Source: an uncultured virus (IMG/VR IMGVR_UViG_2811995091_000194) (lineage: Duplodnaviria > Heunggongvirae > Uroviricota > Caudoviricetes). From it: DNA of 31,381 nucleotides. Below the pieces are notes generated by a model. That model did no database searches, was not told the DNA's origin, and worked only from the letters and a program-made list of their open reading frames with translations. The translations under genes and the position numbers were made by a program. Below are positions 1,034-26,153 of this stretch, piece by piece (the first letter of the stretch is position 1; the number at the start of each line of letters is the position of its first letter). The stretch is taken from the IMG/VR virus record IMGVR_UViG_2811995091_000194; one strand, given 5' to 3'.

Positions 1034-1285
1034 ATGATTATTAAAAAAGGCGATCTTGTTCAGTACACTTCTCATCCTCACGCAACAGTGCATCGAGTTA
1101 TTCCTGGAGATGAATTCCCAGTAGGCCTTGTTATATGCGTAAAAGAAAGTGTTACGCGCGGAGGCCCAAAGATGCGAGCAATAATAAGGACAGTTATCGT
1201 CAAATGGTCAGATGAAAAATGGAATTCTAAAGAAGGCGTGTCTGAAGAATTTGAACCAGACTTAAAGCTTATTCAGCGAATTTAA
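1034..1285 (+). CDS. Small SH3/KOW-like GDLV-family protein
   Basis: KKGDLVQY, VGLVI, VKWSD, ends DLKLI. Confidence 0.7.
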   Translation: MIIKKGDLVQYTSHPHATVHRVIPGDEFPVGLVICVKESVTRGGPKMRAIIRTVIVKWSDEKWNSKEGVSEEFEPDLKLIQRI

Positions 1286-5359: not shown

Positions 5360-5584
5360 ATGACAAAGCAATCAAAATCTTTTTATGACGTTCACGGCAA
5401 TATCATCAACGTGGGAGATCTTGTTCGATATACGTGGGACAAAAATATCATTGGTATGGTAACAGGTCTCACACCGTTTTTTGACCAGGGATCGATTGAC
5501 GTGATTTGTGATCATCGTCTTGCGTTGACATGTATCATCTGCGATAGCAGTCGTAGCACCGTTGCTATCGAGGTGGTCAGGTGA
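5360..5584 (+). CDS. GDLV-family SH3/KOW-like microprotein
   Basis: INVGDLVRY, IGMVT, ends IEVVR. Confidence 0.75.
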   Translation: MTKQSKSFYDVHGNIINVGDLVRYTWDKNIIGMVTGLTPFFDQGSIDVICDHRLALTCIICDSSRSTVAIEVVR

Positions 5585-5883
5585 TGTATCAGATTGGTGA
5601 CATGGTCGGTGTGTGGAACAATGATGACAATTGCGAAGAAACAGGCGTGATCATTGACATCCGTCCGCTTCATCGTCCCACACGTCTGGATGAGTCTGAG
5701 TTCATCGTTCTTGTCGAGGGCACAGTGTGGAATCTAAGTGACAATGAGATCTTTCTCCCAGGTGAATCTCGACCCAGCAACCCTGATGAGACGATTGCAA
5801 GGCGATTCTTTTCTCGTCAGCAAAGATATGGGCGTGAGGATCTCATGAAAGGAGTTGTCGTCTCAGAAGAGAGGGATCGATGA
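5581..5883 (+). CDS. GDLV-family microprotein
   Basis: YQIGDMVGV, TGVIID, IVLVEG. Confidence 0.75.
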   Translation: MMYQIGDMVGVWNNDDNCEETGVIIDIRPLHRPTRLDESEFIVLVEGTVWNLSDNEIFLPGESRPSNPDETIARRFFSRQQRYGREDLMKGVVVSEERDR

Positions 5884-6116
5884 GTGTTGGTGATCTTGTG
5901 ATGTACAATTGGCGCGGATTTGCTTATGGTGTTCACAGGGATATGCTTTGTCCTTGTATCATTATGCGTATCTATGCAGAAGATGAGAAGCGAAGGATAT
6001 TGGGGAAGGTTCACTGGAAAAAATGGGAGTCTGAGACAATGTATGATGTGCTCATTGATGGAAGAGAGATGATTGTCCTATCAAGCATGTTAGGAAAGGC
6101 TGAGGATGTAAAATGA
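5880..6116 (+). CDS. GDLV-family microprotein
   Basis: MSVGDLVMY, YDVLIDG. Confidence 0.75.
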   Translation: MSVGDLVMYNWRGFAYGVHRDMLCPCIIMRIYAEDEKRRILGKVHWKKWESETMYDVLIDGREMIVLSSMLGKAEDVK

Positions 6117-7593: not shown

Positions 7594-7789
7594 ACCCATG
7601 GAGGGCGATCTCATTAGGCTAACCAGCCCGGACATTGGAAGTGGGTCAGACGAGTATGTTGCGCTGATGATTGGGCATGGTGACATCAGGTACGCTAACA
7701 GGCCGTTCTACACGGTCTTGATCGATGGTGAGATCCAGGATGTCGACAGCGGATACTGGGAGATAGAGAGGGTAGGGAAGTCTGCCTGA
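7580..7789 (+). CDS. GDLV-family microprotein
   Basis: MEGDLIRL, YTVLIDG, WEIERV. Confidence 0.75.
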   Translation: MMKAEPMEGDLIRLTSPDIGSGSDEYVALMIGHGDIRYANRPFYTVLIDGEIQDVDSGYWEIERVGKSA

Positions 7790-7796
7790 TCCTTTC

Positions 7797-7825
7797 GTGT
7801 AATCTGGCCGCGCTCGGTATATAAT
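7797..7825 (+). promoter_or_regulatory. Phage early-type promoter GTGTAA-N17-TATAAT
   Basis: Motif repeated at six sites with exact 17-nt spacing; ATG 6 nt after the -10 box. Confidence 0.8.
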
Positions 7826-7831
7826 GATAAC

Positions 7832-8056
7832 ATGAACAGGAATAATCACGGATCATGGGCGAAGGTGGGAGATCTTGTTGAGATCCTGTCACCGCTAGGG
7901 AAGTCAACTGGCATATTCGGTGCGATCGTTGAGGAGCGATATGTGGGAATCCATGGAACAAGAAACATTCTTGTGTTGTGCGGTGATCATAGGGTTGATG
8001 GAAAGGTGTCAAGTTGGGTGAAGGATTGCTATGTCAGAATCGTGGAGGCGGCATGA
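7832..8056 (+). CDS. GDLV-family microprotein
   Basis: AKVGDLVEI, FGAIVE, ends VRIVEAA. Confidence 0.75.
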   Translation: MNRNNHGSWAKVGDLVEILSPLGKSTGIFGAIVEERYVGIHGTRNILVLCGDHRVDGKVSSWVKDCYVRIVEAA

Positions 8057-8247
8057 GACAGGGTGATCTAGTTCTGATAAGCTTCCCTGATCAAAACGGT
8101 ACGGGAATCTATCTAGAGGTCGACCCTGCAAATCTTACGAGATCGCTTGTCCTGTGGGACAGTGAGATCTATTCTATCCCAACATATCAGCTAGAGGTAA
8201 ACAGTGACGTGTACTATGATGAGAATCGCGGTAAGATAAAAGGTTAA
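8053..8247 (+). CDS. GDLV-family microprotein
   Basis: SD GGAGG, MRQGDLVLI, TGIYL, VLWD, QLEV. Confidence 0.75.
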   Translation: MRQGDLVLISFPDQNGTGIYLEVDPANLTRSLVLWDSEIYSIPTYQLEVNSDVYYDENRGKIKG

Positions 8248-8258
8248 GGAGGTGACAG

Positions 8259-8582
8259 ATGTCACTGTTGCGAAAGGTTAAATATGAGATCTGCGACTGG
8301 GCCGGCCATGTCCTGTGTGAGTTCTCATTCAGGTTGTGGGACCTGTTTGACAAGCCGTATGATGAGTGGCGCTGGTGGAATCATGCGATCTATCAGGTCG
8401 GCCGACCGACCTACACTGCCGGATGTTTCTTCTACAGCCTGAATGATTGCGAGCTGGGTGATGTCGTTCTTGAACTAAGCGACGGGTGCGGCGCAGACGG
8501 TGAGTGTTCTCGCTGTGCCGAGCCCTGCTGTCCGGACTGCGGTGTGTGCGAACCCTGTTTTTACGAAGATGAGGATGAGTGA
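8259..8582 (+). CDS. Hypothetical protein with a Cys-rich (zinc-binding?) C-terminus
   Basis: SD AAGGAGGT; CSRC..CCPDC..CEPC. Confidence 0.65.
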   Translation: MSLLRKVKYEICDWAGHVLCEFSFRLWDLFDKPYDEWRWWNHAIYQVGRPTYTAGCFFYSLNDCELGDVVLELSDGCGADGECSRCAEPCCPDCGVCEPCFYEDEDE

Positions 8583-8585
8583 TAG

Positions 8586-8741
8586 GTGAGCGATCGATCG
8601 ATCCACAGCGCCAAGATTCTTGCGATCCTCGTCGTGGTCATGATCATGTCACACTGTCAGCCAGTTCGAAAGTTTATGAATTCACCAATCTTTGGAGAGG
8701 TAAAAAGTGAAAGTCAGGATCCTGTCAGATCTACACCTTGA
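8586..8741 (+). CDS. Possible small membrane or lipoprotein (51 aa)
   Basis: Hand translation MSDRSIHSAKILAILVVVMIMSHCQPVRK..; fills the intergenic gap. Confidence 0.4.
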   Translation: MSDRSIHSAKILAILVVVMIMSHCQPVRKFMNSPIFGEVKSESQDPVRSTP

Positions 8742-9432
8742 GCATAGTGGTCATCGAAAGGAGTTCATCGATGGGCTTGACAACGACTGTGATCTTCTCA
8801 TCCTCGCGGGTGACATCGACTCATGTCTGGACATCGATCGCACGCTTGACATGTTCTGTGCCAGGTTCAGCAACGTGATCCACGTACCTGGGAATCATGT
8901 ATATTACATGTCGTCGCCTCAAAAGATACATGACATTCTCACTTCTGCCAGCGCGAGAAACGACAACCTTCACTATCTCCACACGGAGGACCCAACAGTC
9001 GTGATCGACGGGAGGACGTTCCATGGGTCAACCGGCTGGTTCAGACGAGATCCGCTCAACTTCCACTACGAGAAGAACATGGGTGACTTCCACTACATCG
9101 ACGGGTTCAAGCCTTGGGTGTATGATCAGCAGGAGGTGTTCCAGCACCACCTGGAGGAGAACCTGACGCAAGGTGACATCGTCATCACGCATCACATTCC
9201 CAGTGAGTTCTGCGTGGCGAAGGAGTGGAAGGGGTCAATCCTTAACAGGTTCTTTGTCTGTGACCACAGTGATCTCATCCTTGATCGAAAGCCAGCGCTC
9301 TGGTTTTTTGGTCACACGCACACTAGCTTTGACGGCGTTCTCGGAGAGACCAGGTTCATCTGCAATCCGAGGGGCTATCCCAATGAGTCAAGCGGACAGA
9401 TGTTTGACCCTTGCAAAGAGGTCGAAATATGA
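8707..9432 (+). CDS. Calcineurin-like metallophosphoesterase
   Basis: SDLH, AGD, PGNH, THH, GHTH, NPRGY motifs. Confidence 0.92.
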   Translation: MKVRILSDLHLEHSGHRKEFIDGLDNDCDLLILAGDIDSCLDIDRTLDMFCARFSNVIHVPGNHVYYMSSPQKIHDILTSASARNDNLHYLHTEDPTVVIDGRTFHGSTGWFRRDPLNFHYEKNMGDFHYIDGFKPWVYDQQEVFQHHLEENLTQGDIVITHHIPSEFCVAKEWKGSILNRFFVCDHSDLILDRKPALWFFGHTHTSFDGVLGETRFICNPRGYPNESSGQMFDPCKEVEI

Positions 9433-9668
9433 CAGTTATAACTAATCGAAAGGTCCGTCCCGGCGACTTGGCAACAATTTATAAGGATGAAAACCCTGAT
9501 TGGGCGTGGGCGTACGAAGACGCTGCGACTAAAGAGTTTGTTACACTAAGATCGGGCGACGTCGTTCTCGTGATTAGCAACGGCCACTGGGCGCACATCC
9601 TATATAACGGTAGAGTTCTTGAAGGTAAGAGAACGTGGTTAAGAGCGATAGCGCATGAAGACAGGTGA
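9429..9668 (+). CDS. GDLV-family microprotein
   Basis: VRPGDLATI and LRSGDVVLVI; ATGA overlap. Confidence 0.7.
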   Translation: MTVITNRKVRPGDLATIYKDENPDWAWAYEDAATKEFVTLRSGDVVLVISNGHWAHILYNGRVLEGKRTWLRAIAHEDR

Positions 9669-9867
9669 CCTGGTCAGGATCTCACTTGATGTGATGTATC
9701 TTCCTAACTATCTCGAGGGGAAGATCGGCGTCATAATTGATCAGGAGAGTTCTATCTTCACAAAAAGAATGAGCTCGACACCGACACTGTCTGTCATGAC
9801 GCATTCTGACGAGTATGGATCTGAGGTCTGGACGATAGGCGTGGAACACCTTGAGGTGATATCATGA
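9655..9867 (+). CDS. GDLV-family microprotein
   Basis: MKTGDLVRI, IGVIID, ends HLEVIS. Confidence 0.8.
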   Translation: MKTGDLVRISLDVMYLPNYLEGKIGVIIDQESSIFTKRMSSTPTLSVMTHSDEYGSEVWTIGVEHLEVIS

Positions 9868-9876
9868 TCCTGTTAC

Positions 9877-9905
9877 GTGTAATCTGCCCGGCGGCGGTGT
9901 ATAAT
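9877..9905 (+). promoter_or_regulatory. Promoter GTGTAA-N17-TATAAT
   Basis: Near-copy of the 7787-7830 intergenic module. Confidence 0.8.
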
Positions 9906-9912
9906 AAAAACA

Positions 9913-10173
9913 ATGGAAGGAAACATGCACTGCAAGATCTGCGGTACACAGAATAACGTATCATTCAGGGCTAGCCACACGTGGAAAATGTGTGATCACT
10001 GTCACGAGAACTCTGACAAGCACGTTCTCTCATACGGAGAGTTCAATGATGAGTATTGGGATGACGATGATGATGTTCCTTTCTGCACGAGGAATGAGTT
10101 CTACAGCGACTACAGGTCATCAGGCCTGTCGTATGAGGATTACGTGAGCCAAACAAGTGAGGTGATGTCATGA
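9913..10173 (+). CDS. Small zinc-finger-like protein
   Basis: CKIC..CDHC; alternative start at 9925. Confidence 0.65.
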   Translation: MEGNMHCKICGTQNNVSFRASHTWKMCDHCHENSDKHVLSYGEFNDEYWDDDDDVPFCTRNEFYSDYRSSGLSYEDYVSQTSEVMS

Positions 10174-10427
10174 GTGTAATGGGACCAGACGGAAAGATCA
10201 TTCAACCAGGCGGCGGGTGGTGGTCACCGTACGGTGATACCGATGAGGAGATCATGGAGAACATGAGAACAGGTCACATGCCAAACGCCCCCGGCGCCGT
10301 GAGGGTCGGACCAAGAAGTATCACGGGTAGTGAGAAGGGAGATCGATCTCTACTCGACGCTCTCGGTGACATGGGTGCGCTAGCTGGAACAGCTAGAGAG
10401 GCGTACGAGGATAGGAAAAAGAAATGA
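10170..10427 (+). CDS. Hypothetical protein
   Basis: SD GAGGTGAT; ATGA overlaps at both ends. Confidence 0.65.
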   Translation: MSVMGPDGKIIQPGGGWWSPYGDTDEEIMENMRTGHMPNAPGAVRVGPRSITGSEKGDRSLLDALGDMGALAGTAREAYEDRKKK

Positions 10428-10597
10428 AAGTCGGTGATGTGGTAAGACACAAGGAGCTTAATCAGATTGGGATTATCTTCCAGCGCATTCCAGAAAAGGG
10501 TAATCCTTATCAGAATATGTATCTGATTTACTGGAACAACAACATCATTAGCGCTTCTTTTGATGCAAAGCTGGAGTTTCTAAATGAACACAGGTGA
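10424..10597 (+). CDS. GDLV-family microprotein (57 aa, missing from the ORF track)
   Basis: MKVGDVVRHKELNQIGIIFQ..YLIYWNN..KLEFLNEHR. Confidence 0.75.
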   Translation: MKVGDVVRHKELNQIGIIFQRIPEKGNPYQNMYLIYWNNNIISASFDAKLEFLNEHR

Positions 10598-10796
10598 TCT
10601 CGTTAGGTGGTCCTGGTATCTTAGCACGGATTGGGCGACAACTCACTTCACTGGGATCATTGTCGACTCATCAGTGTTTAACACTAGCTTTCACACATCA
10701 GGAACGGAAACAATCCGTGTTTTTGACGTGCTAGATGACACAGGTCAGGTGGTTCGTGTCAGGGCAGATGAACAATCACTGGAGGTGATCACATGA
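10584..10796 (+). CDS. GDLV-family microprotein
   Basis: MNTGDLVRW, TGIIVD, ends SLEVIT. Confidence 0.8.
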   Translation: MNTGDLVRWSWYLSTDWATTHFTGIIVDSSVFNTSFHTSGTETIRVFDVLDDTGQVVRVRADEQSLEVIT

Positions 10797-11002
10797 AAGT
10801 CGGTGATCTGGTCAAGGTGAGGGATTGTGAGCATATCGAAATGTTTGACTGTTCGTGTGTGCTTTGCTGTCATCGTTCTAGCCGAATCGGGCTGATCGTA
10901 TCACAGGCGCCGATGAACTCATTCGCGGTTCAGTTTGACTTCGGCGAGTGGCGACTTGACAAGTTTGACTTCGCGAGAGGCGATGTTGAGGTGATAGGGT
11001 GA
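10793..11002 (+). CDS. GDLV-family microprotein with a CxCxxC insert
   Basis: MKVGDLVKV, CSCVLC, IGLIV, ends DVEVIG. Confidence 0.8.
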   Translation: MKVGDLVKVRDCEHIEMFDCSCVLCCHRSSRIGLIVSQAPMNSFAVQFDFGEWRLDKFDFARGDVEVIG

Positions 11003-11226
11003 TAAAAGAAGGTGATCTCGTTAGGTTCTACAATTACGACTATTTTAACGATCCCTCATGGGAGATAGGTATCGTGGTTGAGATAACGCATGAACTGCCA
11101 GAGGAGAACTGGGATGAGAACTCCCTACCCGCTGCGATCGTCATGAATGATAAGCATATGATGGCGATCTGTGTTCCTAACGAGATCAACTATGGAACGT
11201 GGGTCGAGGTGGTAGGATGCAAGTAG
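10999..11226 (+). CDS. GDLV-family microprotein
   Basis: IKEGDLVRF, IGIVVE, WVEVV. Confidence 0.8.
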   Translation: MIKEGDLVRFYNYDYFNDPSWEIGIVVEITHELPEENWDENSLPAAIVMNDKHMMAICVPNEINYGTWVEVVGCK

Positions 11227-11435
11227 GCGCTCTGGTTCAGTTCAGGAGGGTCCAGAGATATCACTCTGATGGTCAACACCTACGAGATGAGGAGATGACA
11301 ACAGGGATCATCGTCGAGCAATTCCCGCCACCCGATGAGGTTCTCTTCGTGATGATGGGATGGCGGTGTATAGATGGTAAGATGATCTGGAATAATGACA
11401 TGGTCGTAACTGAGGAAGACGTGCGGGTGATATGA
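11217..11435 (+). CDS. GDLV-family microprotein
   Basis: MQVGALVQF, TGIIVE, ends DVRVI. Confidence 0.75.
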   Translation: MQVGALVQFRRVQRYHSDGQHLRDEEMTTGIIVEQFPPPDEVLFVMMGWRCIDGKMIWNNDMVVTEEDVRVI

Positions 11436-11605
11436 TGAGAAAGATCTTTAATTTTTTCAGCGAGTGGAGCGATTATCTCTCTGGCATGCTATTGGGTGCG
11501 ATCCTCGGGGGTTATGTCGTGTACCAGGCGAGGGGTGATGAGATCGCCGAGATCCATGCTGACCACCGTGAGCGAATTGAGGCGATGATAAGTGAAGATA
11601 GGTGA
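11432..11605 (+). CDS. Small single-TM protein (57 aa, missing from the ORF track)
   Basis: MMRKIFNFFSEWSDYLSGMLLGAILGGYVVYQARG..; overlaps both neighbours. Confidence 0.6.
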   Translation: MMRKIFNFFSEWSDYLSGMLLGAILGGYVVYQARGDEIAEIHADHRERIEAMISEDR

Positions 11606-11786
11606 TCTGGTAAGTATCAAGTGGTCTGAACCGATGCGTGGCATGAAGTCTGTGTACACATCCACCATCGGGATCATTATCTGCGCTCATCAGCTATCGG
11701 ACACATCTGTGGATGCGTTCGTGGTATTGTGGAGTAACGGGGAACAACTACCTCACATGTCATGTTACCTGGAGGTGATAAAATGA
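11592..11786 (+). CDS. GDLV-family microprotein
   Basis: MKIGDLVSI, IGIII, VLWSNG, ends YLEVIK. Confidence 0.8.
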   Translation: MKIGDLVSIKWSEPMRGMKSVYTSTIGIIICAHQLSDTSVDAFVVLWSNGEQLPHMSCYLEVIK

Positions 11787-12001
11787 AAGTCGGTGACCTG
11801 ATCAGACGTCGCTTTGTCACACTCGCGCAAAAGAGAAGGATGATGGGGTTCGATCCTGCTTTTGACCCTGACGCGTTATACATCGTGACCAAGATCGATG
11901 ATGATCTCGGGGGTGCGCAGATCCTGAATACTGCAACAGGGAACGTGGAAACTGTCGTGAACTCGACTGACTACTACGAGGTGATCAGTGAAACCCGGTG
12001 A
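11783..12001 (+). CDS. GDLV-family microprotein
   Basis: SD GGAGGTGA, MKVGDLIRR, YEVISE. Confidence 0.8.
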   Translation: MKVGDLIRRRFVTLAQKRRMMGFDPAFDPDALYIVTKIDDDLGGAQILNTATGNVETVVNSTDYYEVISETR

Positions 12002-12197
12002 CATAGTAAAAATGCGATATCATAATGACGCCTTTGGAATCATCATAGAGAAATATAATAGCCCAACAGTTAAGATCGGAAACAGGGCGCATCAACTTAA
12101 CGCAAATCTTTACGACATTCTCTGTAGCAACGGTAAAATACTCTGCTACATGCCAAGCATGGGGCTCGAGGCGGTAAATGAAAATGCTAAAACTTAG
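11988..12197 (+). CDS. GDLV-family microprotein
   Basis: MKPGDIVKM, FGIIIE, YDILCSNG, LEAV. Confidence 0.8.
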   Translation: MKPGDIVKMRYHNDAFGIIIEKYNSPTVKIGNRAHQLNANLYDILCSNGKILCYMPSMGLEAVNENAKT

Positions 12198-12279
12198 AAA
12201 AGGCGATATGATATTTTTTGATCCGCCCCCAGGATCAGGTCGCGCTGCTATGTTTCATAAGGGTAACAAAAATGAGTGA
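12178..12279 (+). pseudogene. Truncated GDLV-family remnant (33 aa)
   Basis: MKMLKLRKGDMIFFDPPPGSGR.. stops just inside the start of the next gene. Confidence 0.45.
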
Positions 12280-13366
12280 TTACAACATCACAGATCCAGA
12301 GATCATCAAGATGCTCGATAATCTAAATGAGGAAGAACGCAAAGGCGTTGCTGATCAGATTCAGAAAACATTTGATAAGCTCAATGAAGCACGATCAGCG
12401 AGCGATAACGAGTTCACACCAGAAGAGTTTCTGAAAACGCTCGGCATTATGATTGATAGACAAACTGGGGAGGATAAAATGTCATTTGTCCCTTGGAAAG
12501 AAAGCGCAATTGAGAATCTAGAAGAAATCTTCCGAGAGCATAGCGAAATGGAAGATAAACTTGAATGGCTTGCAAAACACCTTGATATGCATGAATATGC
12601 TCCAAGGATTCTTGAAGATTATCATAAAGAGTTTAGCATCGTTACGTCCTGCGAAACGAGCAAAGAGGAATCAGCACGTATTGATGCGATCGAGAATATA
12701 AAAGAAAAATTAAAAACAGCCCAGCGTTGCTGGGGAAATGTTTCGGAACGCTTAGATTGGCTAGAAGAAAGAATGGAAGAGTGCCGGGTCACATTTGACA
12801 TTGATATGATTCTTTCGGAATATGAGGAAAAATTCTTTGCCTTAAAGCATGATAATGTCCATAAAGAAGTTGGCAAGGGAAGGGCAGTAAAAACTGTGAG
12901 ATCGGAATCTCCGCTAACTCACGTTGGCAAAGTAAAGCTAAAAGTAAAAAGCGTGGAACCGATGACTTATTCATCTGTTGGCGATGAACTCTGCAATATC
13001 GCAGAAGACGGAGTGTGCGAGAGTTTAGAGTGTAAGGAACACAACACAAACTGGTATAGCTGCGCTCACTGCGACGCCGGATATGAAGATCAGGAGTGTG
13101 TTTGCGACAAGTGGATCTGCGACGGATGTCTAAAGGCGTTCGGAAACGACGAGGCCAACACGGTCGTAACAACAAAAACTGTATCCGGCATTGTGATGTG
13201 TGAGAGTTGCATGAGACCAGACGAGGACGTTCTTGACAATAGCGAGGAGGCGCTGCTAAGCAGGATGTGCGATGAGATCGAGGCGGAGTGTTTTGGCGAG
13301 GACTTTGACTATGATCGCGAGAGGATGAAAAAAACATTGCATATGATCCTTGATACAAGTGAGTAA
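12272..13366 (+). CDS. Acidic multi-module hypothetical protein with an internal helical duplication and Cys-rich C-terminus
   Basis: AIENL..LEWL..ILEDY and AIENI..LDWL..ILSEY; several CxxC; internal SD+ATG at 12479. Confidence 0.7.
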   Translation: MSDYNITDPEIIKMLDNLNEEERKGVADQIQKTFDKLNEARSASDNEFTPEEFLKTLGIMIDRQTGEDKMSFVPWKESAIENLEEIFREHSEMEDKLEWLAKHLDMHEYAPRILEDYHKEFSIVTSCETSKEESARIDAIENIKEKLKTAQRCWGNVSERLDWLEERMEECRVTFDIDMILSEYEEKFFALKHDNVHKEVGKGRAVKTVRSESPLTHVGKVKLKVKSVEPMTYSSVGDELCNIAEDGVCESLECKEHNTNWYSCAHCDAGYEDQECVCDKWICDGCLKAFGNDEANTVVTTKTVSGIVMCESCMRPDEDVLDNSEEALLSRMCDEIEAECFGEDFDYDRERMKKTLHMILDTSE

Positions 13367-13646
13367 GCAAAAAGAGGTTCCTAAGGTGAAAGAGGGTGAC
13401 CTGGTCCGCATCATCGACGACAACGGCGACGACAGGGGCGTCGGCATGTTCATGGAAAGATTTAGACCGATCGACCGCGGACTGTCAAAGATCGACCTCC
13501 AGGAGGGTCAACTCGACGCCACATACATGTTCACAGGCAGGTCATTCATAGGTCACGCCCCCACCTTCTGGCACTATGAGGTGCTATGGGAGGGAGAGCT
13601 ACGCTGGCTAAATACGGATCATTTTACGCTGATATCGATGTTGTAG
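13359..13646 (+). CDS. GDLV-family protein
   Basis: VKEGDLVRI, VGMFME, YEVLWEG. Confidence 0.75.
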   Translation: MSKQKEVPKVKEGDLVRIIDDNGDDRGVGMFMERFRPIDRGLSKIDLQEGQLDATYMFTGRSFIGHAPTFWHYEVLWEGELRWLNTDHFTLISML

Positions 13647-13679
13647 ATAATAGCGTGATCGTTCACAAGGAGAACAAGA

Positions 13680-14186
13680 ATGATTAAGATGATAACAGTC
13701 ATTGCTGGATTACTTCTAGCAACACCCGCTACTGCGGAAACAACAAACTCACTAGGCTTTGCAGCGGGTGGGACATACGGCGCTGGCCTGTCATACTCAC
13801 ACGACACAGACACCTGGGGATACCAGGTTACCGGATTACCCATATGGGATGAGACAGACGGCGGTAAGGTGTTCGGGGGTGTTAACATCAAGAGGAACTT
13901 CCACGAGAATGGTCGGGTCGGTGTGTACGGATCCCTGGGCCTGGCCGGAGGACTCTGGCGCGACACATATGAGGATTGCGATTGGAATGAGGAATCTGGA
14001 GAGGACGACTGTGTCACCGTGACCGACGAGGGTTGGGGCGCAGTGACAGGCCCTGGTGTCGGGATGCAAGTTGTATTTCTCAAGAACATGCTATTCAGGT
14101 TCGAACTCCCCTTAGGGTTCAGGTACGGATCAGAGGGGTTTGGAATCACACCCTTGCCGAACACCGCACTCATGTACCGCTGGTGA
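13680..14186 (+). CDS. Secreted outer-membrane beta-barrel-like protein
   Basis: SD AAGGAG; signal peptide ..ATPATA; Gly/aromatic alternating strands; C-terminal LMYRW. Confidence 0.7.
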   Translation: MIKMITVIAGLLLATPATAETTNSLGFAAGGTYGAGLSYSHDTDTWGYQVTGLPIWDETDGGKVFGGVNIKRNFHENGRVGVYGSLGLAGGLWRDTYEDCDWNEESGEDDCVTVTDEGWGAVTGPGVGMQVVFLKNMLFRFELPLGFRYGSEGFGITPLPNTALMYRW

Positions 14187-14222
14187 CGTGATCCTGCGTT
14201 TCCACAATTAACGTCCTGTCGC

Positions 14223-14251
14223 GTGTAAATGGATCACGTGCGGGGTATAAT
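14223..14251 (+). promoter_or_regulatory. Promoter GTGTAA-N17-TATAAT upstream of rtcB
   Basis: Same motif and spacing as the other copies. Confidence 0.8.
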
Positions 14252-14271
14252 GATAAAAAAGGAAACGCGTT

Positions 14272-15489
14272 ATGTCAAGCTACAACGTGCTAGACGACTC
14301 CCCTGGGCTGGTGAAGATGTGGACCAGGGGAGTCCACGCTGAGGATCAGGCGAAGGAACAGCTGAGGAAGCTATCAGGTCTTCCCTTCATCCACCGTCAC
14401 ATTGCGGTCATGCCTGACATGCACATGGGGAAAGGCTCTTGCGTGGGAGCGGTCATTCCCACCGTTAACGCGATCATCCCCGCGGCTTGTGGCGTCGATA
14501 TTGGGTGTGGGGTAATGGCGGTTCGGACCTCCCTGACTGCTAACGACCTGCCTGATAACCTTCAGAAGGTGCGCTCCAGAATTGAGCGGATGATCCCGCA
14601 CGGTCGGACCCACCACGGCGGATCACGGGATGAGGGAGCGTGGGGTGACATCCCTGACGATGTCGCGCGCAAGTGGAACACACTGAAGGATGACTTCGAG
14701 GTCATCTGCGAGAAACACCCACGCATCGCGAAATCGAATAACGTGCGCCACCTGTCCAGCCTAGGGTCAGGCAATCATTTTTTAGAGGTATGTATCGACA
14801 CGGAAGATCGCGTTTGGGTCATGCTACACTCAGGTTCACGCGGTGTCGGGAACAGGATCGGAACTCACTTCATCTCCCTCGCGAAGAAGGACATGGAGCG
14901 CTGGTATATCAACCTGCCTGACAAGGATCTGGCGTACATCCCCCAGGGTTCAACGCACTTCAAGGACTACATCCAGGCGGTGAACTGGGCGCAGAGGTTC
15001 GCGAAGGTGAACCGCGAGCTGATGATGGATCGCGCTCTTGACGCGATCTCCTGGGCACTGCGAAGGGAGTTTGACCACGGTGATTCTGTTGTTAACTGTC
15101 ACCACAACTACATCGCGAAGGAGAATCACTTCGGTCGCGACGTGTGGGTAACTCGGAAGGGCGCTGTCCGAGCGCGACGCGGCGACCTGGGAATCATCCC
15201 AGGGGCGATGGGAAGGAAGTCGTTCATCGTGCGCGGCAAGGGTGAGAAGGAATCGTTCTGCTCTTGCTCTCACGGTGCTGGTCGCCTGATGTCCAGGACC
15301 AAGGCGAAGGCGCTGTTCACGATTGAGGATCACACGCTGGCGACAGAGGGGTTGGAGTGCAGAAAGGATGAGGATGTCATCGATGAAACTCCGATGTCGT
15401 ATAAGCCGATCGACGATGTGATGAAGGCGCAGTCAGACCTTGTTGAGGTCTTGCACACCCTGCGCGCTGTCGTCTGTGTCAAGGGATAA
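14272..15489 (+). CDS. rtcB: RtcB RNA ligase (3'-phosphate/5'-OH), E. coli-type
   Basis: MPDMHMGKG, GVDIGCG, LGSGNHFLE, LHSGSRGVG, CHHNY, HGAGR, DETP..YK, VKG end. Confidence 0.97.
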   Translation: MSSYNVLDDSPGLVKMWTRGVHAEDQAKEQLRKLSGLPFIHRHIAVMPDMHMGKGSCVGAVIPTVNAIIPAACGVDIGCGVMAVRTSLTANDLPDNLQKVRSRIERMIPHGRTHHGGSRDEGAWGDIPDDVARKWNTLKDDFEVICEKHPRIAKSNNVRHLSSLGSGNHFLEVCIDTEDRVWVMLHSGSRGVGNRIGTHFISLAKKDMERWYINLPDKDLAYIPQGSTHFKDYIQAVNWAQRFAKVNRELMMDRALDAISWALRREFDHGDSVVNCHHNYIAKENHFGRDVWVTRKGAVRARRGDLGIIPGAMGRKSFIVRGKGEKESFCSCSHGAGRLMSRTKAKALFTIEDHTLATEGLECRKDEDVIDETPMSYKPIDDVMKAQSDLVEVLHTLRAVVCVKG

Positions 15490-15493
15490 CGAC

Positions 15494-16234
15494 ATGCGAT
15501 GTATCGAGGGAAGCGGGTGGAGGAGGATCATCCATAGCCACCCAGTCAAGGGGCGCGACCACGACGGTCTAAAGGACCCGCGCGTGTGGTTCACGGAGCA
15601 GATCGACAGGAATGTCAACCATGACTTCACTGACTGCGACGGCGTCAGGCAGACAGGTCGCACCACGCTGATGATCCTCAAGGCGATGCGGGCGATCAAG
15701 GTCGACAGGAAGGTCCCGGTCATCATCTGTCACAATAGCGCTAGTGCTCGTCACATCGCGACGGACATGACAGACTACCTGAATCAGGTGAGTGATACCT
15801 TGATGTTCATGTATGCTAGATATGTGATCATGATACGCGACCTGGAGACGGGCTTCACCCGTGATGCGTGTTACTTTGTCACAGACATGAGGGCGATGAG
15901 GGGAAGGGAGTATGATGTGATCTTCATTGACAACGCAATTTTCGATGAGGGAAGTCACATTGACGACGTGTTGCAAGGAGCGCAGGTAACAAAGGAGAAA
16001 ATTGACATGCCAGAGATAACGGGCGATCGCAGCGTCCTCGCCTCAGACGGAGAGATTTTTCACGTGGGAGATCTCATCCAGTGGGGGAGCGGAACGGCGG
16101 TGATCCTCGACATCGTTAGTGAGGGTGATCCCAGCCCAACGCCCTGGGCGGACTATATTGTCGTGCTCTTCCAAGGCAAGATCCAGCAGGTCGTTGCAAA
16201 TCAGGTTGAGCTGTTCACGAAGGTGAGCTCATGA
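15494..16234 (+). CDS. Small P-loop ATPase-like domain fused to a C-terminal GDLV-family domain
   Basis: RQTGRTT (Walker A-like), YDVIFIDN (Walker B-like); internal SD AAGGAG and ATG 16007, then FHVGDLIQW..VELF. Confidence 0.6.
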   Translation: MRCIEGSGWRRIIHSHPVKGRDHDGLKDPRVWFTEQIDRNVNHDFTDCDGVRQTGRTTLMILKAMRAIKVDRKVPVIICHNSASARHIATDMTDYLNQVSDTLMFMYARYVIMIRDLETGFTRDACYFVTDMRAMRGREYDVIFIDNAIFDEGSHIDDVLQGAQVTKEKIDMPEITGDRSVLASDGEIFHVGDLIQWGSGTAVILDIVSEGDPSPTPWADYIVVLFQGKIQQVVANQVELFTKVSS

Positions 16235-16464
16235 TCAAGGTGGGTGATTTCATCGCTGAGAAAAATCTTCTCGTCATCCGGCGGTTAGACTGGTCAGATG
16301 TTGAGCGAAGACTCGACGAAGCTGGCTGTTTTGAGGGTTACCCGCACGTGTACAAGGAAGAGAAAGCGAGATTTTATGATCACATACACACCCACGACGG
16401 TTTGTGGGAGGTGATGGATAGCGACGGTCAGATCGGAATCATGCTAGGTGAGAGAAAGAGATGA
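16231..16464 (+). CDS. GDLV-family protein
   Basis: IKVGDFIAE, WEVMDSDG. Confidence 0.65.
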   Translation: MIKVGDFIAEKNLLVIRRLDWSDVERRLDEAGCFEGYPHVYKEEKARFYDHIHTHDGLWEVMDSDGQIGIMLGERKR

Positions 16465-16706
16465 GTAAGTCAGAGGACAGACGCATCGCCATTCAAAAAA
16501 AGACAAAAGCGCAAGAGGTCGATAACGTCATCACTCCGCTAAGCAGGGTGTGCGGAAACTGCGATCTGGTGTATATCTTCAACGACCCCAGCGATAAGAG
16601 TGTGGGTGAGTTCCTTGACAGGATAAGTGCCAGTGAGAACGGAAGTAGCATTGGGTCGAGTGATGAGCTATTCTGCTCAGCGAGGTGTCGAGCTGAAGGT
16701 GCCTGA
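16461..16706 (+). CDS. Small zinc-binding-like protein
   Basis: CGNC..FCSARC. Confidence 0.65.
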   Translation: MSKSEDRRIAIQKKTKAQEVDNVITPLSRVCGNCDLVYIFNDPSDKSVGEFLDRISASENGSSIGSSDELFCSARCRAEGA

Positions 16707-16726
16707 CGGGAGGTAAGAGAGATTGC

Positions 16727-16755
16727 GTGTAAGCTTAATCATGCTGTGATATAAT
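16727..16755 (+). promoter_or_regulatory. Promoter GTGTAA-N17-TATAAT (also TGn extended -10)
   Basis: Same motif and spacing. Confidence 0.8.
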
Positions 16756-16774
16756 GTTATCATAAGGAGCTAAA

Positions 16775-16957
16775 ATGAAAATCGGTAACCTCGTAAAACT
16801 CCACGAATCAACCCGAAAATGTGGCCAATACGCTGGAAAGCAAGCGATGATTATTGATAGAGATAAATATTCTCAATATGTTCTGTTGGTTGAAGGTGAG
16901 ATTATTAAGTTTCACTCAACACAGATCGAAGAGGAATACAGAAATGAAAGTCGGTGA
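16775..16957 (+). CDS. GDLV-family microprotein
   Basis: SD AAGGAG; MKIGNLVKL, AMIID, YVLLVEG. Confidence 0.8.
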   Translation: MKIGNLVKLHESTRKCGQYAGKQAMIIDRDKYSQYVLLVEGEIIKFHSTQIEEEYRNESR

Positions 16958-17114
16958 TTTAGTAAAAGTGCCGGACACTCCTCTGGGTCCAAGCTGTATT
17001 GGGCTCGTCATCGAACACAGCGGCGATCTGGTTGTAATAATGCACCGCTACAGGAGACGTTCTGTGTGGCGTACCCGCAGTCTCGAACGCCATGTAATAT
17101 CGGACACAAAATGA
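16944..17114 (+). CDS. GDLV-family microprotein
   Basis: MKVGDLVKV, IGLVIE, SLER; start at ATG 16944 rather than 16854. Confidence 0.75.
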   Translation: MKVGDLVKVPDTPLGPSCIGLVIEHSGDLVVIMHRYRRRSVWRTRSLERHVISDTK

Positions 17115-17176
17115 GTAAATCACAAGAACGGCGCGACGCTATTCAAAAGAAGAAGGTTTATAGAGGTAATCAATGA
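17111..17176 (+). pseudogene. 21-aa remnant paralogous to the N-terminus of the 16461 gene
   Basis: MSKSQERRDAIQKKK versus MSKSEDRRIAIQKKT; ATGA-coupled on both sides. Confidence 0.55.
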
Positions 17177-17394
17177 AAGTCGGTGACCTGATTCGCGTTG
17201 CGCCAGATGATGACGAGATCTTTCTGATAGTTGATACAATTACACATCAGTACACTCTTCCTGACGAGGACAAGCGTAGACGAGATCACTTGCTTCTCGA
17301 CATGCACGGGAGGATCCTGAACGGCGGGATGCTACGCCATGCGGTGATGGTTAGTGAGTATGCGTCGTGTATGTCAGCGTCAGGCGTGGTATAA
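17173..17394 (+). CDS. GDLV-family microprotein
   Basis: MKVGDLIRV, FLIVD. Confidence 0.75.
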   Translation: MKVGDLIRVAPDDDEIFLIVDTITHQYTLPDEDKRRRDHLLLDMHGRILNGGMLRHAVMVSEYASCMSASGVV

Positions 17395-17395
17395 T
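17367..17395 (+). promoter_or_regulatory. Promoter GTGTAT-N17-TATAAT
   Basis: One mismatch in the -35 box; overlaps the end of the upstream gene. Confidence 0.7.
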
Positions 17396-17412
17396 AAGGT
17401 AAAGGGATCAAC

Positions 17413-17640
17413 ATGATCATCGGTGACATCGTCAGGCAGAGCGGAAACATGGTGAAAGGCGTGTGTACATCTAGGCGCCTGGGTGTGGTCATTGATATTA
17501 CAGAAAGAGATGACAGCGGACCGGGACTTAGCGGTTCAGAGTGGGCGAAGAAAACATTCGGTCGTCATGTCAATGTTCTCTGGTCAGATGGAAAGATGAT
17601 GCGGGTTCCAGAGCGATCGCTTGAGGTGATCAGTGAGTGA
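17413..17640 (+). CDS. GDLV-family microprotein
   Basis: MIIGDIVRQ, LGVVID, VLWSDG, SLEVISE. Confidence 0.8.
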   Translation: MIIGDIVRQSGNMVKGVCTSRRLGVVIDITERDDSGPGLSGSEWAKKTFGRHVNVLWSDGKMMRVPERSLEVISE

Positions 17641-17878
17641 GATGATCGAGAGGGTTGGCGAGCTCTGCACGATCTGGGATCCCGCTCTCGGCAGTTCTCC
17701 TAAGTACGTACAGAACTGGCTGATCGGCATCATCGTCGACGAGCGGTGGTCCCATGAGTATCGAGGTATGAGATATCAGGTCATGTGGGGTGACTTAAAG
17801 CGAGATGACACCTGGTACTCGTGGGACGATATCAATCCAAAGTGGTTACCGAGAGATGATTTAACGCATTCTACCTAA
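17633..17878 (+). CDS. GDLV-family microprotein
   Basis: RVGELCTI, IGIIVD, YQVMWGD. Confidence 0.7.
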   Translation: MSEMIERVGELCTIWDPALGSSPKYVQNWLIGIIVDERWSHEYRGMRYQVMWGDLKRDDTWYSWDDINPKWLPRDDLTHST

Positions 17879-17897
17879 CAGACCCGGACTAGACGAT

Positions 17898-18128
17898 ATG
17901 AACAACAAGCACAGCAAAAACAGTGATCACCTCGAGCCCGGCGACCTTAGCCACTTCTATGAGCGCGCAGCGCCATATGACGACAAAGGCGCTATATACT
18001 TCGGTATCGTTGTCGAGGTGGGCGAGGCGTATCGACCTGACTACTCGCCCTTATACGGAGTGATGTGCGATGACGGCGTCATGAGGGATTTCTTCGACGG
18101 CGAGAGATACGAAAAGGACGTGCTTTGA
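17898..18128 (+). CDS. GDLV-family microprotein
   Basis: LEPGDLSHF, FGIVVE, YGVMCDDG. Confidence 0.7.
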   Translation: MNNKHSKNSDHLEPGDLSHFYERAAPYDDKGAIYFGIVVEVGEAYRPDYSPLYGVMCDDGVMRDFFDGERYEKDVL

Positions 18129-18331
18129 TGTTGAACAACGGGGACCTGATGGTATATGATGATAGGTATCAGCCAAACCCATGGGATGGTATGCTTGTCC
18201 TGATATTGGAATTATACTCAGAACCGTATGACGCAACACCGCATAACCCACTATACAGAGTATTAATCAACGGTAACATCGACGTGGTCAGTTCAGAATT
18301 TTTAGCAGAGGTGAGAGAAGATGAAGCTTGA
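18125..18331 (+). CDS. GDLV-family microprotein
   Basis: LNNGDLMVY, YRVLING, LAEV. Confidence 0.75.
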   Translation: MMLNNGDLMVYDDRYQPNPWDGMLVLILELYSEPYDATPHNPLYRVLINGNIDVVSSEFLAEVREDEA

Positions 18332-19217
18332 GAGAGTTAGGCTAACAGCTAGTGAGATCAACAGTGACGCCGCCGAGGTGTTGGCGACAAAGCCCGTGTA
18401 CGTTGCGATGACGATGGGTGGGTTCATCGCAGGCGGTTTTGCTCGTAGCCTAGCACACTCCCTGTTGCTTGATCGGAAGGCGTCAATAAGGAATTATCTC
18501 ACGCCGAATAATCAGTGGCCAAGGATCGCGTCAACACCCGGTGATGTTGACATCTTCTCTCCTGCTAGCATTGACACCTTGAAAATCGCGGCCGGTTCCC
18601 GGTCCCTCGGCGACTTTGCTGTGAATGTTCCCATGAAGCTAAGCCAGCAAGCCAGCGCGGGGGTAAAAGAGGTCAACATGCCGTGGAAGCGTGAATACGT
18701 CGTTCAGATCGTCGACCATCCCAGGTTTAGATATGAGGATGTGAGATCGTGCCTGGACTCATTTGACCTGATCAACTCCAGGTACGCCATCGCGATGGAC
18801 AGCGGAGCGATCTATCTTCACTGGGACCCTGAGGCGATCAGGCTAGACAAGTCCAGGCAGATCGGTATCTGCAGGACTGACACGCCGTTCTTGCCCGCTA
18901 GGGTCGCGAAGTATCTCAGGTTCAGGGGATGCGAGAACGGACTTGCCCCAGGGTCAGATGACATGCTAACAGAGTGGTTGATTCGCGCTAGCACAGGAAC
19001 CTGGCCGGAGTACTTTAACGCCCGTCACAAGTCAAGCATTGACAAGCACGTGAGGCTGATGAAGATGTTAGACCTGATGCGTGTGACCGATCTCACACTC
19101 TTTCTTGGAAAGTGGAAACAGGTGGTTAGAAAAGAAAAGTACGGACAGGAGTATATCGTTGACTGGGCGTGTAATCAGATGGGTGAGATGACGGAGTACA
19201 AAAATGACAGCGCGTGA
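18321..19217 (+). CDS. Pol-beta-superfamily nucleotidyltransferase (CCA/poly(A) polymerase head-like)
   Basis: FIAGGFAR..GDVDIF (hGG + DxD), VQIV, LDSFDL, R..KY..RG. Confidence 0.7.
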   Translation: MKLERVRLTASEINSDAAEVLATKPVYVAMTMGGFIAGGFARSLAHSLLLDRKASIRNYLTPNNQWPRIASTPGDVDIFSPASIDTLKIAAGSRSLGDFAVNVPMKLSQQASAGVKEVNMPWKREYVVQIVDHPRFRYEDVRSCLDSFDLINSRYAIAMDSGAIYLHWDPEAIRLDKSRQIGICRTDTPFLPARVAKYLRFRGCENGLAPGSDDMLTEWLIRASTGTWPEYFNARHKSSIDKHVRLMKMLDLMRVTDLTLFLGKWKQVVRKEKYGQEYIVDWACNQMGEMTEYKNDSA

Positions 19218-19422
19218 GCGAGCCTGGACCCTAAACGTCACATCGGTCGAGGACCAGGATGACGGTACCTCGCTTGTCATGTTCGACGTCGACGATGAGT
19301 TCATCACATGGTTCAAGGAGTGGCAAGGTCTAAAGAGGTGGAGTCAAAAGAGATTCCAACGCGTGATGCACGAGGCGTTGGTTGAGTACATCGACGCCTC
19401 AGGTGTGAGGGAGAAGGAATAG
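19204..19422 (+). CDS. Hypothetical protein
   Basis: SD GGAG; 14-nt overlap with the upstream gene. Confidence 0.65.
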   Translation: MTARERAWTLNVTSVEDQDDGTSLVMFDVDDEFITWFKEWQGLKRWSQKRFQRVMHEALVEYIDASGVREKE

Positions 19423-19423
19423 C

Positions 19424-19780
19424 ATGTCATACTCACGGTGGTCAAATAGCTTCTGGTACACGTTCTGGAGCGGGACAGATGATGCGCCTCTCGACGCAAA
19501 GTTTGAGATCTGTGATGTCGCCCGCGGCCAGATCTTTACCTACAAGGAACTGTCAGAAGATATCGACAGCTGTCTCAGGTTGGTCCAGGAGTCATTCCGG
19601 AAGAAAGCACATGGTAAACTATTGGCGGGGATGACAAGGGCGTCAGAGGGTAATCTACGCATGGAGTATGAGGATGTCGAGTGGGATCCTGTTGAGCTAT
19701 CTGACGAGCAATTGAGTGAGCTAAGGGGTTACATGACCGAGTTCATGCGCGACGTGGAGGAGAGATATGACATCGGGTGA
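19424..19780 (+). CDS. Phage hypothetical protein (MSYSRW..WY start)
   Basis: SD AAGGA; 118 aa. Confidence 0.7.
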   Translation: MSYSRWSNSFWYTFWSGTDDAPLDAKFEICDVARGQIFTYKELSEDIDSCLRLVQESFRKKAHGKLLAGMTRASEGNLRMEYEDVEWDPVELSDEQLSELRGYMTEFMRDVEERYDIG

Positions 19781-20000
19781 TCTAATCAGAGTTGAGTATC
19801 CGCCTGAGTGGAACCTGGAATCCTACTATGGGATTGTTCTCGAGTCGTGGAAGGAGTATAGCGCGCGCTGGACAGGTGATCCATTGAACCTTGTTCCTCA
19901 TAACAACAGCGACATGATGGTGCTGACGCCGCACAAGGGCGTGAGAGTTGTCGAAAGGGCGCTGATCCAAAGAAGGTGGGATAAAAATGAGGATAGTTGA
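19767..20000 (+). CDS. GDLV-family microprotein
   Basis: MTSGDLIRV, YGIVLE. Confidence 0.75.
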   Translation: MTSGDLIRVEYPPEWNLESYYGIVLESWKEYSARWTGDPLNLVPHNNSDMMVLTPHKGVRVVERALIQRRWDKNEDS

Positions 20001-20277: not shown

Positions 20278-20330
20278 AGATATGATGACAAATAATACTT
20301 ACTATAACCCACCCAGTGAGATGATACTCC

Positions 20331-25922: not shown

Positions 25923-26153
25923 ATGGATATTGGTGATTTAGTTTACTATAAAGGCTTCGTATTTTGCGGAGATACAGATCCACCACTTTTTGAGAAAATA
26001 AATAATTTTAGGATAGGCCTTGTTATAGCAAGAGAGAAGTCGTCTTATCTTCTTTCAGTTGATGGCAGGGTTTTGTGGGCATGTACTGATGATGATTCAG
26101 TGATAAGAGACTGGGACATGATTCTTATTAGCAAGTCAGATAATAAAGAATGA
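25923..26153 (+). CDS. GDLV-family microprotein
   Basis: MDIGDLVYY, IGLVIA, YLLSVDG. Confidence 0.7.
   Translation: MDIGDLVYYKGFVFCGDTDPPLFEKINNFRIGLVIAREKSSYLLSVDGRVLWACTDDDSVIRDWDMILISKSDNKE

Follow-up and report, generated by a model that had tools for sequence, protein, structure and literature searches.

A multi-purpose coding boundary between diverged paralogs in the small-gene arrays of an uncultured marine tailed phage

The DNA of the uncultured virus IMGVR_UViG_2811995091_000194 (IMG/VR; Caudoviricetes), 31,381 nucleotides (nt) long and referred to in its entirety as the window, is best read as an early or accessory stretch from the genome of a marine, uncultured tailed phage. Its plus strand carries arrays of small genes, in which one gene passes into the next through a short stretch of coding DNA, called the joint. 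The joint is the physical boundary between successive paralogs and encodes the last protein strand of one gene product, the Shine-Dalgarno (SD) sequence, the start codon and the first protein strand of the next product at once. An original prediction, made from the letters of the window, had described the joint as C-terminus, SD, start and stop in one, which is borne out, and had gone on to propose that it serves an integrase-free cassette system. The two arrays, with a further family gene downstream, are composed as follows; they were delimited by translations, alignment and hidden Markov model (HMM) matches of their open reading frames (ORFs).

9429..12197, plus strand: first array, with 11 family genes and 3 non-family genes interspersed.
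9429-9668, 9655-9867, 10424-10597, 10584-10796, 10793-11002, 10999-11226, 11217-11435, 11592-11786, 11783-12001 and 11988-12197, plus strand: family genes listed for the first array.
9913-10173, 10170-10427 and 11432-11605, plus strand: non-family genes of the first array.
16231..18128, plus strand: second array.
16231-16464, 16775-16957, 16944-17114, 17173-17394, 17413-17640, 17633-17878 and 17898-18128, plus strand: family genes of the second array.
16461-16706 and 17112-17177, plus strand: a non-family gene and a mini-ORF of the second array.
19767..20000, plus strand: family gene MTSGDLIR..., whose own GGTGA is the stop of the non-family gene 19424-19780.

The joints of these genes lie at the following positions.

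9655..9668, plus strand: 14-nt overlap joint ATGAAGACAGGTGA of ORFs 9411..9668 and 9655..9867.
10584..10597, plus strand: 14-nt overlap joint of ORFs 10424..10597 and 10584..10796; the upstream tail is ...LNEHR*.
11592..11605, plus strand: 14-nt overlap joint with a GTG start, of ORFs 11432..11605 and 11592..11786; the upstream product is a non-family membrane-like protein with the tail ...ISEDR*.
11978..12001, plus strand: full joint of ORFs 11762..12001 and 11988..12197, with GAGGTGAT (EVI codons as SD), GTG at 11988 and TGA at 11999-12001; the tail is YEVISETR*.
16944..16957, plus strand: 14-nt overlap joint with the exact 14-mer, of ORFs 16775..16957 and 16944..17114; the tail is ...RNESR*.
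19767..19780, plus strand: 14-nt overlap joint of ORFs 19424..19780 and 19767..20000.
10782..10806, plus strand: joint with the SD GAGGTGAT, an ATGA 4-nt overlap and the exact 14-mer.
11772..11796, plus strand: joint with the SD GAGGTGAT, an ATGA 4-nt overlap and the exact 14-mer (repeat family D1; 89% identity over 36 nt to the joint 10779-10814).
10424..10437, plus strand: exact 14-mer with an ATGA overlap, behind the non-family gene 10170-10427.
17163..17186, plus strand: variant SD GAGGTAAT and exact 14-mer, with the mini-ORF 17112-17177 upstream.
11206..11226, plus strand: second joint type ATGCAAGTAG, with a 10-nt overlap, a TAG stop and the upstream tail ...EVVGCK*.
17623..17640, plus strand: upstream tail LEVISE*; GAGGTGAT precedes the GTG start of 17633.

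The joint holds the last strand LEVI of the upstream protein, whose GAG-GTx-AT codons are the SD, followed by the ATG or GTG start, the first strand MKxGDLV of the downstream protein and an out-of-frame TGA. The SD motif GAGGTGAT has 10 copies in the window, 9 of them on the plus strand, against 1.73 expected and a shuffle maximum of 5, and 7 of the 10 are 3' gene ends directly ahead of the following start. It is present at all five sites where the EVI codons had been predicted to act as SD of the next gene (10782, 10988, 11772, 11978 and 17623) and also at 9853 and 10159, likewise at gene ends; the variants are GAGGTGGT at ~5570 and at 11206, and GAGGTAAT at 17163. The exact 14-mer ATGAAAGTCGGTGA starts all five of the genes named for it (10424, 10793, 11783, 16944 and 17173), and a copy with two mismatches was met at 16775 in the window scan. 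With up to two mismatches allowed, 6 matches stand against 0.25 expected, and 6 was reached in 0 of 100 shuffles. The longest identical run of the joint in the window is at most 21 bases, all of it coding and free of promoter or hairpin. The Cys-rich, zinc-ribbon-like product of the non-family gene 9913-10173 ends in ...SEVMS*, and the GAGGTGAT there (10159-10173) is the SD of the next gene, so that the habit of placing the SD in the C-terminus extends beyond the family.

The six 14-nt overlaps, in which the TGA within the Gly-Asp codons had been claimed to be the stop of the upstream gene, are all present in the ORF list. Only the exact 14-mer at 16944 lies within such an overlap, the remaining four being ATGA 4-nt overlaps. 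Read in the upstream frame, the 14-mer gives the tail NESR* (xAT GAA AGT CGG TGA). A or G followed by TGAAAGTCGGTGA closes both of the other frames, +1 by ATGA and +2 by GGTGA, and therefore an upstream ORF in either frame ends 4 or 14 nt into the next gene. Two of the six overlaps terminate non-family genes (11432-11605 and 19424-19780), which shows that the stop belongs to the 5' end of the downstream gene, whatever lies upstream.

The genes that meet at joints are members of one very diverged paralog family, which has ~23-25 small ORFs of 55-85 residues in the window. Eighteen of the small joint ORFs could be aligned to the pattern MKxGDLV...hGhIh...V.W.dG...LEVI (alignment A1, with the consensus MKxGDLV...GIIx...V..W..G...EVI), and an iterated HMM matches 25 window ORFs, all on the plus strand. 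The pairwise identity between the window proteins is 9-27%. A core-only profile was built from members outside the window after trimming of the first 8 and last 9 residues; in its ranking of 370 ORFs, the top 10 contained 9 trimmed window proteins and the top 25 contained 17 (Mann-Whitney p 5e-13), and thus the cores are homologous in spite of their low identity. The statement of the original prediction that the cores differ completely is true only of DNA and of pairwise identity. The genes are paralogs and no set of unrelated cassettes, so that their shared ends are explained by descent.

The family is very large and unnamed. No family protein passed the gathering threshold in the Pfam scan, the best score being 18.1 bits for SH3_9 (cut-off 30) with 9429-9668; 16775-16957 matched KOW at 11.9 bits, below the cut-off of 22.3, and the other family proteins had nothing closer. 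The PHROG search gave no match with E <0.05, the homologue search gave 21 matches without a named protein, the Atlas search gave unnamed viral clusters only, and the sequence profile search of the PDB gave only sub-threshold matches to KOW, SH3 and PsaE (E 0.017-0.9). The literature searches made turned up no description of the family or of the joint. The AlphaFold2 (AF2) model, with 131 family members in the input, has a pLDDT of 81.8 and five strands at 6-9, 23-30, 52-57, 62-66 and 70-74, of which the first and last are the joint-encoded MKxGDLV and LEVI. VIA-align places it with SH3-like barrels (Tudor, KOW, PWWP, PsaE and NdhS) at Z 6.1-7.3, a range that may reflect common arrangement only, and Foldseek ranks YorP of the SPbeta prophage first (E 0.023). 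The predicted fold is an SH3-like five-strand barrel, an assignment to a fold class that implies no function. Natural in-frame fused family pairs exist (P0022 and P0023). Long multi-repeat matches (P0026, P0166 and others) were rejected as family members, as they are eukaryote-like Mind-bomb SH3 repeat proteins with a generic likeness of fold class only.

Related phages carry the same boundary in large numbers. Related loci were anchored on the MoxR-like ATPase of the L001-type contig, and 80 of 240 loci were analysed, mostly from contigs of 180-200 kb; searched with the L001 array and ATPase, they have no cultured relative above 28%, the best being 25-28% amino-acid identity. The family profile gave 1076 ORF matches in 83 sources, with up to 29 in 19 kb, and, with L002 (coding strand minus) excluded, 1069 matches lie on the plus (coding) strand and 2 on the minus strand. 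The full-library search gave 7083 family clusters at 50% identity (E up to 0.001), from uncultured marine phages. Starts could be assigned for 873 of the 1076 matches, giving 765 unique junction contexts. The overlap measures 14 nt in 385 of them (50%), 4 nt in 125, 10 nt in 32 (MQVG/...CK* type) and 1 nt in 20; 248 of the 765 begin with A or G followed by TGAAAGTCGGTGA. The 25-nt pattern of SD and 14-mer is also present in four IMG/VR contigs that have no other DNA or tblastx similarity to the window and that carry the same arrays, with tails such as ...LEVINESR*. The second junction type, with an MQVG start, the tail ...VV[GS]CK*, a 10-nt overlap and TAG, was seen in the window at 11217-11226 and in L001 at 4667-4676 (...EVVSCK*/MQVGD), and it too is common to phages without other shared DNA similarity.

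Codon use at the joint positions was compared with the family-core background. Gly4 is GGT in 100% of the 14-nt overlaps, 48-59% of the other junctions and 30% of the core; for Val3 as GTC, the values are 87% (with a further 10.5% GTA), 52-54% and 22%. Lys2 is AAA in ~80% of both 14-nt overlaps and other junctions against 52% in the core, and the Glu of EVI is GAG in 281 of 292 14-nt overlaps against 45% in the core. The GTG start is used in 204 of 385 14-nt overlaps but in 10 of 118 4-nt overlaps, and GAGGT stands at a fixed -10 in 185 of the 385. The last residue of the upstream protein is Arg in 97% of the 14-nt overlaps, by way of GTC or GTA at Val3, and CGG or AGG is strongly preferred before the stop. 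These choices follow from double use of the same bases: GGT is obligatory for the TGA stop, GTC and GTA supply the upstream C-terminal Arg, and GAG belongs to the SD. Dual coding, which serves stop, Arg codon and SD alike, therefore explains most of the excess synonymous identity. The nucleotide identity of the joint is kept by descent and by dual-coding selection, with purifying selection across the clade on the bases of the stop, the Arg and the SD. The predicted synonymous identity does far exceed codon bias, although most of the excess comes from this clade-wide dual coding and not from local homogenisation.

In related phages, whole genes are gained, lost and swapped with crossovers inside the joint. 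The loci L060 and L061 are 96-98% identical and differ by five insertions or deletions (indels), three of which are whole family genes (L060 3983-4130, L061 4287-4431 and L060 7496-7676) exactly in register. At these, the shorter genome has a hybrid joint, with crossovers in identical stretches of 11-16 nt, too short for a k-mer assembly artefact. The fourth indel is a deletion within a family-like gene, which leaves the six-codon ORF MSIKNG*, and the fifth concerns a non-family gene with the 7-nt SD AGGAGAG repeated on its two sides. L088 has one extra, joint-bounded gene relative to L087, and the 97.6% identity of L085 to L087 ends 12 nt ahead of a family start. Across 51 locus pairs, 64 events were recorded (40 replacements, 22 indels and 2 small events), and 71 of 109 unique family-gene breakpoints (65%) fall within -20 to +30 of a family start against 20% in the null (p 4e-24). 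Replacements are bounded by joints on both sides in 6 of 40 rows, about four distinct events, for example 4 genes in L052 against 10 in L075. Alignment overlaps reach 19-36 nt at family indels and 3-7 nt at non-family indels. The joint is a sharper instance of the general rule that mosaic junctions of phages lie at gene borders, its added feature being the overlaps of 19-36 nt.

With moderate confidence, we read these loci as arrays of diverged paralogs with a dual-coded boundary and probably coupled translation, in which gene gain and loss at the joints arise as a by-product. The layout suggests that a ribosome would terminate at the TGA 11 nt past the start and reinitiate at the AUG or GUG just behind it, aided by the SD in LEVI. 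Such termination-reinitiation would couple expression along arrays transcribed from the promoter-like repeats at 7793, 9873 and 14219. By analogy, the arrangement probably couples translation along the array, and the enrichment of GTG in 14-nt overlaps fits a reliance on coupling. In related phages, the joint alone gives otherwise dissimilar neighbours a common run of 11-21 identical bases, and recombination from joint to joint deletes, duplicates or swaps whole genes in register. With stops in two frames, an SD and a start in the joint, most recombination products would remain expressed, while the outcome in the third frame would be an in-frame fused pair of the kind found in nature. In the simplest view, which we take, recombination at joints is a by-product of shared identity that renders the arrays hyperplastic; no evidence for a dedicated integrase-free machine was found among the data described here.

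Several points weigh against this reading. Non-family breakpoints also lie at gene ends, in 56 of 115 cases (49%) against 16% in the null, compared with 93 of 109 (85%) against 35% for family genes, and the predicted concentration of breakpoints at joints thus stands for family genes while being less than exclusive to them. Counted per junction, L060 and L061 show events at 3 of 10 family and at 1-2 of 29 non-family junctions, which is not significant (Fisher test of 3/10 against 1/25, p 0.06). Because BLAST alignments run on into conserved joints wherever these occur, the placing of breakpoints is biased in favour of joints, and the events are phylogenetically non-independent, with duplicate loci (e.g., L053 and L056) repeating them. 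In the window's own lineage, where only identical contigs and the distant relative L007 were available, no structural variant or circle was found. When window positions 1000-20999 were compared with Logan contigs of four marine runs, the apparent junctions had sides of 21-26 letters linking different joint copies, which marks them as repeat noise or contigs of other organisms, uninformative on circles or deletions. Where contigs from two studies reach across several joints (e.g., 10204-11271), they have the gene order of the window. On the coding side, codons 6 and 7, beyond the overlap, are skewed as well, toward A/T-rich codons (Leu6 is TTR in 79% against 34% in the core, Val7 is GTA in 44% against 18%), and the enrichment of GTC and GGT persists in junctions without a 14-nt overlap. 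The constraint of the overlap is hence not the whole story. Selection for an unstructured initiation region, ancestry from overlapped junctions and joint-joint recombination each fit the residual skew. Elsewhere, the exact 14-mer is present in 50 of 115 ATG-MKVGD starts that have no 14-nt overlap, and in the window it is present in 4 of 4, a marginal difference (p ~0.035).

The strongest competitor, possible although we think it unlikely, is that constraint acts alone: protein ends, SD, start and stop would conserve the joint, and boundary breakpoints would reflect illegitimate recombination at random positions, after which selection keeps the genes intact. It agrees with the codon statistics, and the breaks of non-family genes at boundaries, with an enrichment ratio similar to that of the family genes, are what it leads one to expect. 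It accords less well with whole-gene indels exactly in register with hybrid joints, with the long alignment overlaps at family as opposed to non-family indels, and with the higher share of family breakpoints at boundaries. The predicted recombination at the joint is partly upheld, in relatives, by the indels, swaps and breakpoint counts, and tempered by the behaviour of non-family genes.

We put little weight on the bolder proposal that the joint is a selected portable recombination module, a coding counterpart of the PeSL elements of phage T4, by which SH3-like cassettes would be inserted, deleted and exchanged without an integrase between positions and co-infecting phages. If it were true, the built-in SD, start and two-frame stops would guarantee immediate expression of a newcomer, and the arrays would form a diversity-generating reservoir of host-targeting binders. 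More doubtful still is a dedicated cassette system, in which the joint would be selected as a recombination site and excised gene circles would move between positions and co-infecting phages. The joint-bounded indels and block swaps of relatives, the identical 25-nt pattern in the four contigs otherwise without DNA similarity to the window, and the two-frame stops, which would keep insertions safe in two of three frames, are in keeping with it, and the T4 PeSL mini-circles (PMC2839356) offer a precedent. No circle or permuted junction was observed, however, what the phages have in common is the consensus of the family, held under dual-coding selection, so that its identity needs no transfer, and no recombinase is tied to the arrays (the Pfam scan of the 18 longest window ORFs gave only a RecA-superfamily ATPase of unclear role). 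The predicted integrase-free cassette system therefore goes beyond the data, which describe a sharper case of a general pattern and demonstrate no dedicated system.

A recoding event, namely a +1 shift at CGG-TGA into the downstream frame GAT-CTG... that fuses neighbouring barrels into multi-domain proteins, is very improbable, for, although the frames are so placed that a shift at the stop would enter the downstream frame at Asp5, the fused pairs P0022 and P0023 occur naturally and CGG or AGG is strongly preferred before the stop, slippery re-pairing is lacking, CGG and GGT matching poorly, the SD stands ~11 nt away from the point of the shift as against the short SD spacing of the release factor 2 (RF2) recoding site, and two family domains were met in 0 of 1076 locus ORFs.

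Set beside known systems, the coding boundary of these paralog arrays has its closest analogue in the T4 PeSL cassette. PeSL are conserved promoter and stem-loop elements of ~100 bp that flank ORFans; recombination between them accounts for indels among close relatives and gives rise to mini-circles (Arbiol et al., 2010, PMC2839356; Comeau et al., 2014, PMC4122927). Both systems have small accessory ORFs of hyperplastic regions bordered by short conserved sequences. In both, a gene takes its expression signals along, no integrase takes part, and indels or replacements have their crossovers in the element, as seen here in the relatives L060/L061, L087/L088 and L052/L075. PeSL are intergenic, however, with a sigma-70-like early promoter and a terminator stem-loop, whereas the joint is a coding overlap of ~14-36 nt; the joint sits between paralogs and its signals are translational, while PeSL flank unrelated ORFans and carry transcriptional signals; and PeSL mini-circles are physically demonstrated, whereas the joint is known from sequence and no circles were seen. 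The intergenic promoter plus terminator that defines PeSL is absent from the joint, and the promoter-like repeats of the window are separate elements.

Tandem paralog arrays evolve by unequal crossing-over or replication slippage, and the present arrays resemble them in their homologous neighbours and, as far as the relatives go, in copy-number differences between close relatives and in crossovers at equivalent positions. Unlike usual tandem arrays, their copies stand at 9-27% identity and only the dual-coded boundary retains enough of it, which limits crossovers to gene borders and leaves the products in register. The joint is an extreme form both of unequal crossing-over within a tandem family and of coupled gene overlap. 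Integron cassettes need the IntI integrase and attC sites. They too are promoterless small genes in one orientation that are exchanged as units, but the joint is a coding overlap and attC an imperfect inverted repeat; no integrase domain was found among the 18 longest ORFs, and attC structure was not specifically sought.

Overlapping genes with coupled translation form another close comparison. psbD-psbC is a coupled pair with a 14-nt overlap and a GUG start, in which ~80% of downstream translation depended on translation of the upstream gene (PMC3326318), and further coupled overlapping pairs have been reported (Huber et al., 2019, PMC6728339). The joint genes share the structure of such pairs: they are co-directional, each begins at or before the stop of its predecessor and has its SD within that predecessor, GTG/GUG starts are common, and their overlap has the length of that in psbD-psbC. 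The usual overlaps are 4 and 1 nt, whereas here 14 nt is modal throughout the family (385/765) and repeated in series. Homeologous recombination is a reported source of phage mosaicism (Martinsohn et al., 2008, PMC2327257), and it likewise takes short or diverged homology at gene borders as substrate. In that study, lambda Red was measured on diverged gene pairs, while here no recombinase was identified.

The work brings to light small SH3-like phage proteins that form a very large family without a name and have a compact, multi-purpose gene boundary. It gives a concrete, testable case in which recombination is kept to gene borders by the overlap of coding and translation signals, so that diverged paralogs are exchanged without breaking frame or expression. 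This bears on the origin of phage mosaic junctions, whether by targeted recombination or by random recombination with selection, and on the evolution of ORFan-rich hyperplastic regions. Synthetic arrays with coupled translation could also be modelled on the joint.

Outside the two arrays, the window has the following further members; a promoter-like repeat is listed with them.

1034..1285, plus strand: outlying family member MIIKKGDL... (iterated HMM, E 4.8e-07).
5360..6116, plus strand: region of further members, 5360-5584 with NVGDLV behind an N-terminal extension and 5880-6116 with the start MSVGDLV.
5584-5883, plus strand: candidate member (MYQIGDMV), spotted by eye only.
7832/7865-8056 and 8053-8247, plus strand: weak family members (iterated HMM, E 0.004 and 0.0014).
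25923..26153, plus strand: outlying family member MDIGDLVY... (repeat family D3; HMM E 9.5e-07).
9873..9912, plus strand, with other copies at 7793-7832 and 14219-14258: 40-nt promoter-like repeat CGTGTAA...GGTATATAAT (TATAAT), repeat family D5.

In two of the three copies of the promoter-like repeat, the next ATG (7832 and 9913) lies exactly 7 nt past TATAAT, which would make leaderless or near-leaderless mRNAs. The mini-ORF 17112-17177 has 21 codons (MSKSQERRDAIQKKK...) and ATGA overlaps at both ends, and its product is similar to the N-terminal part of that of the 81-residue gene 16461-16706 (MSKSEDRRIAIQKK...). This has the look of a relic left by deletion of a paralog, comparable with MSIKNG* in L060.

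The window also encodes RtcB, an ATP-dependent DNA ligase, an M23 peptidase with a peptidoglycan-binding domain, an RNase H-like protein and a metallophosphoesterase, and it looks like part of a large tailed phage. Its sequence is present in marine metagenomes. A DNA search of 9400-12260 against cultured phages gave no match, nor did the protein 18321-19217, and a search of viral contigs with the proteins 12218-13366 and 15440-16234 gave no close relative of the window. A metagenome scan for relatives gave the identical pieces L005 and L006, the one distant relative L007 and one 1.2-kb fragment. In L007, RtcB has 71% nucleotide identity and the same arrays are present, with gene order and content differing around common anchor genes. 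A 249-residue RecA-superfamily ATPase (27506-28255) adjoins the DNA ligase and has matches to KaiC and DnaB-C and weak UvsX-like ones. From its sequence, it is a possible recombination or replication protein. Nothing else of this kind came out of the Pfam scan of the 18 longest ORFs, in which no integrase or recombinase domain was found.

The G+C content is 33-39% at the flanks (1-5000 and 21000-27000) and 43-56% in the array and RtcB region (5000-21000), which indicates a mosaic composition. In the four marine runs, contig depth is 2-5 times higher over the bins that hold joints (10338-11004 and 16341-17674), and many contigs of other organisms in the samples must thus carry joint sequence.

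In L001, from a phage of ~190 kb, eight intergenic copies of a ~70-nt element were seen (335-425, 985-1065, 1860-1955, 2755-2840, 4205-4300, 5510-5615, 6425-6510 and 7990-8085), each with a hairpin, GGACA...TGTCC, then TCGACAA and a box similar to TATATT, upstream of an SD. The element, a PeSL-like terminator-plus-promoter cassette, stands between arrays in L001-type relatives. Interspersed in the same arrays, L001 1058-1873 and 5608-6441 encode paralogous proteins of ~275 residues with CCHC zinc-knuckle-like motifs (CYNYGHNKMGCP and CRTTGHDIRDCP).

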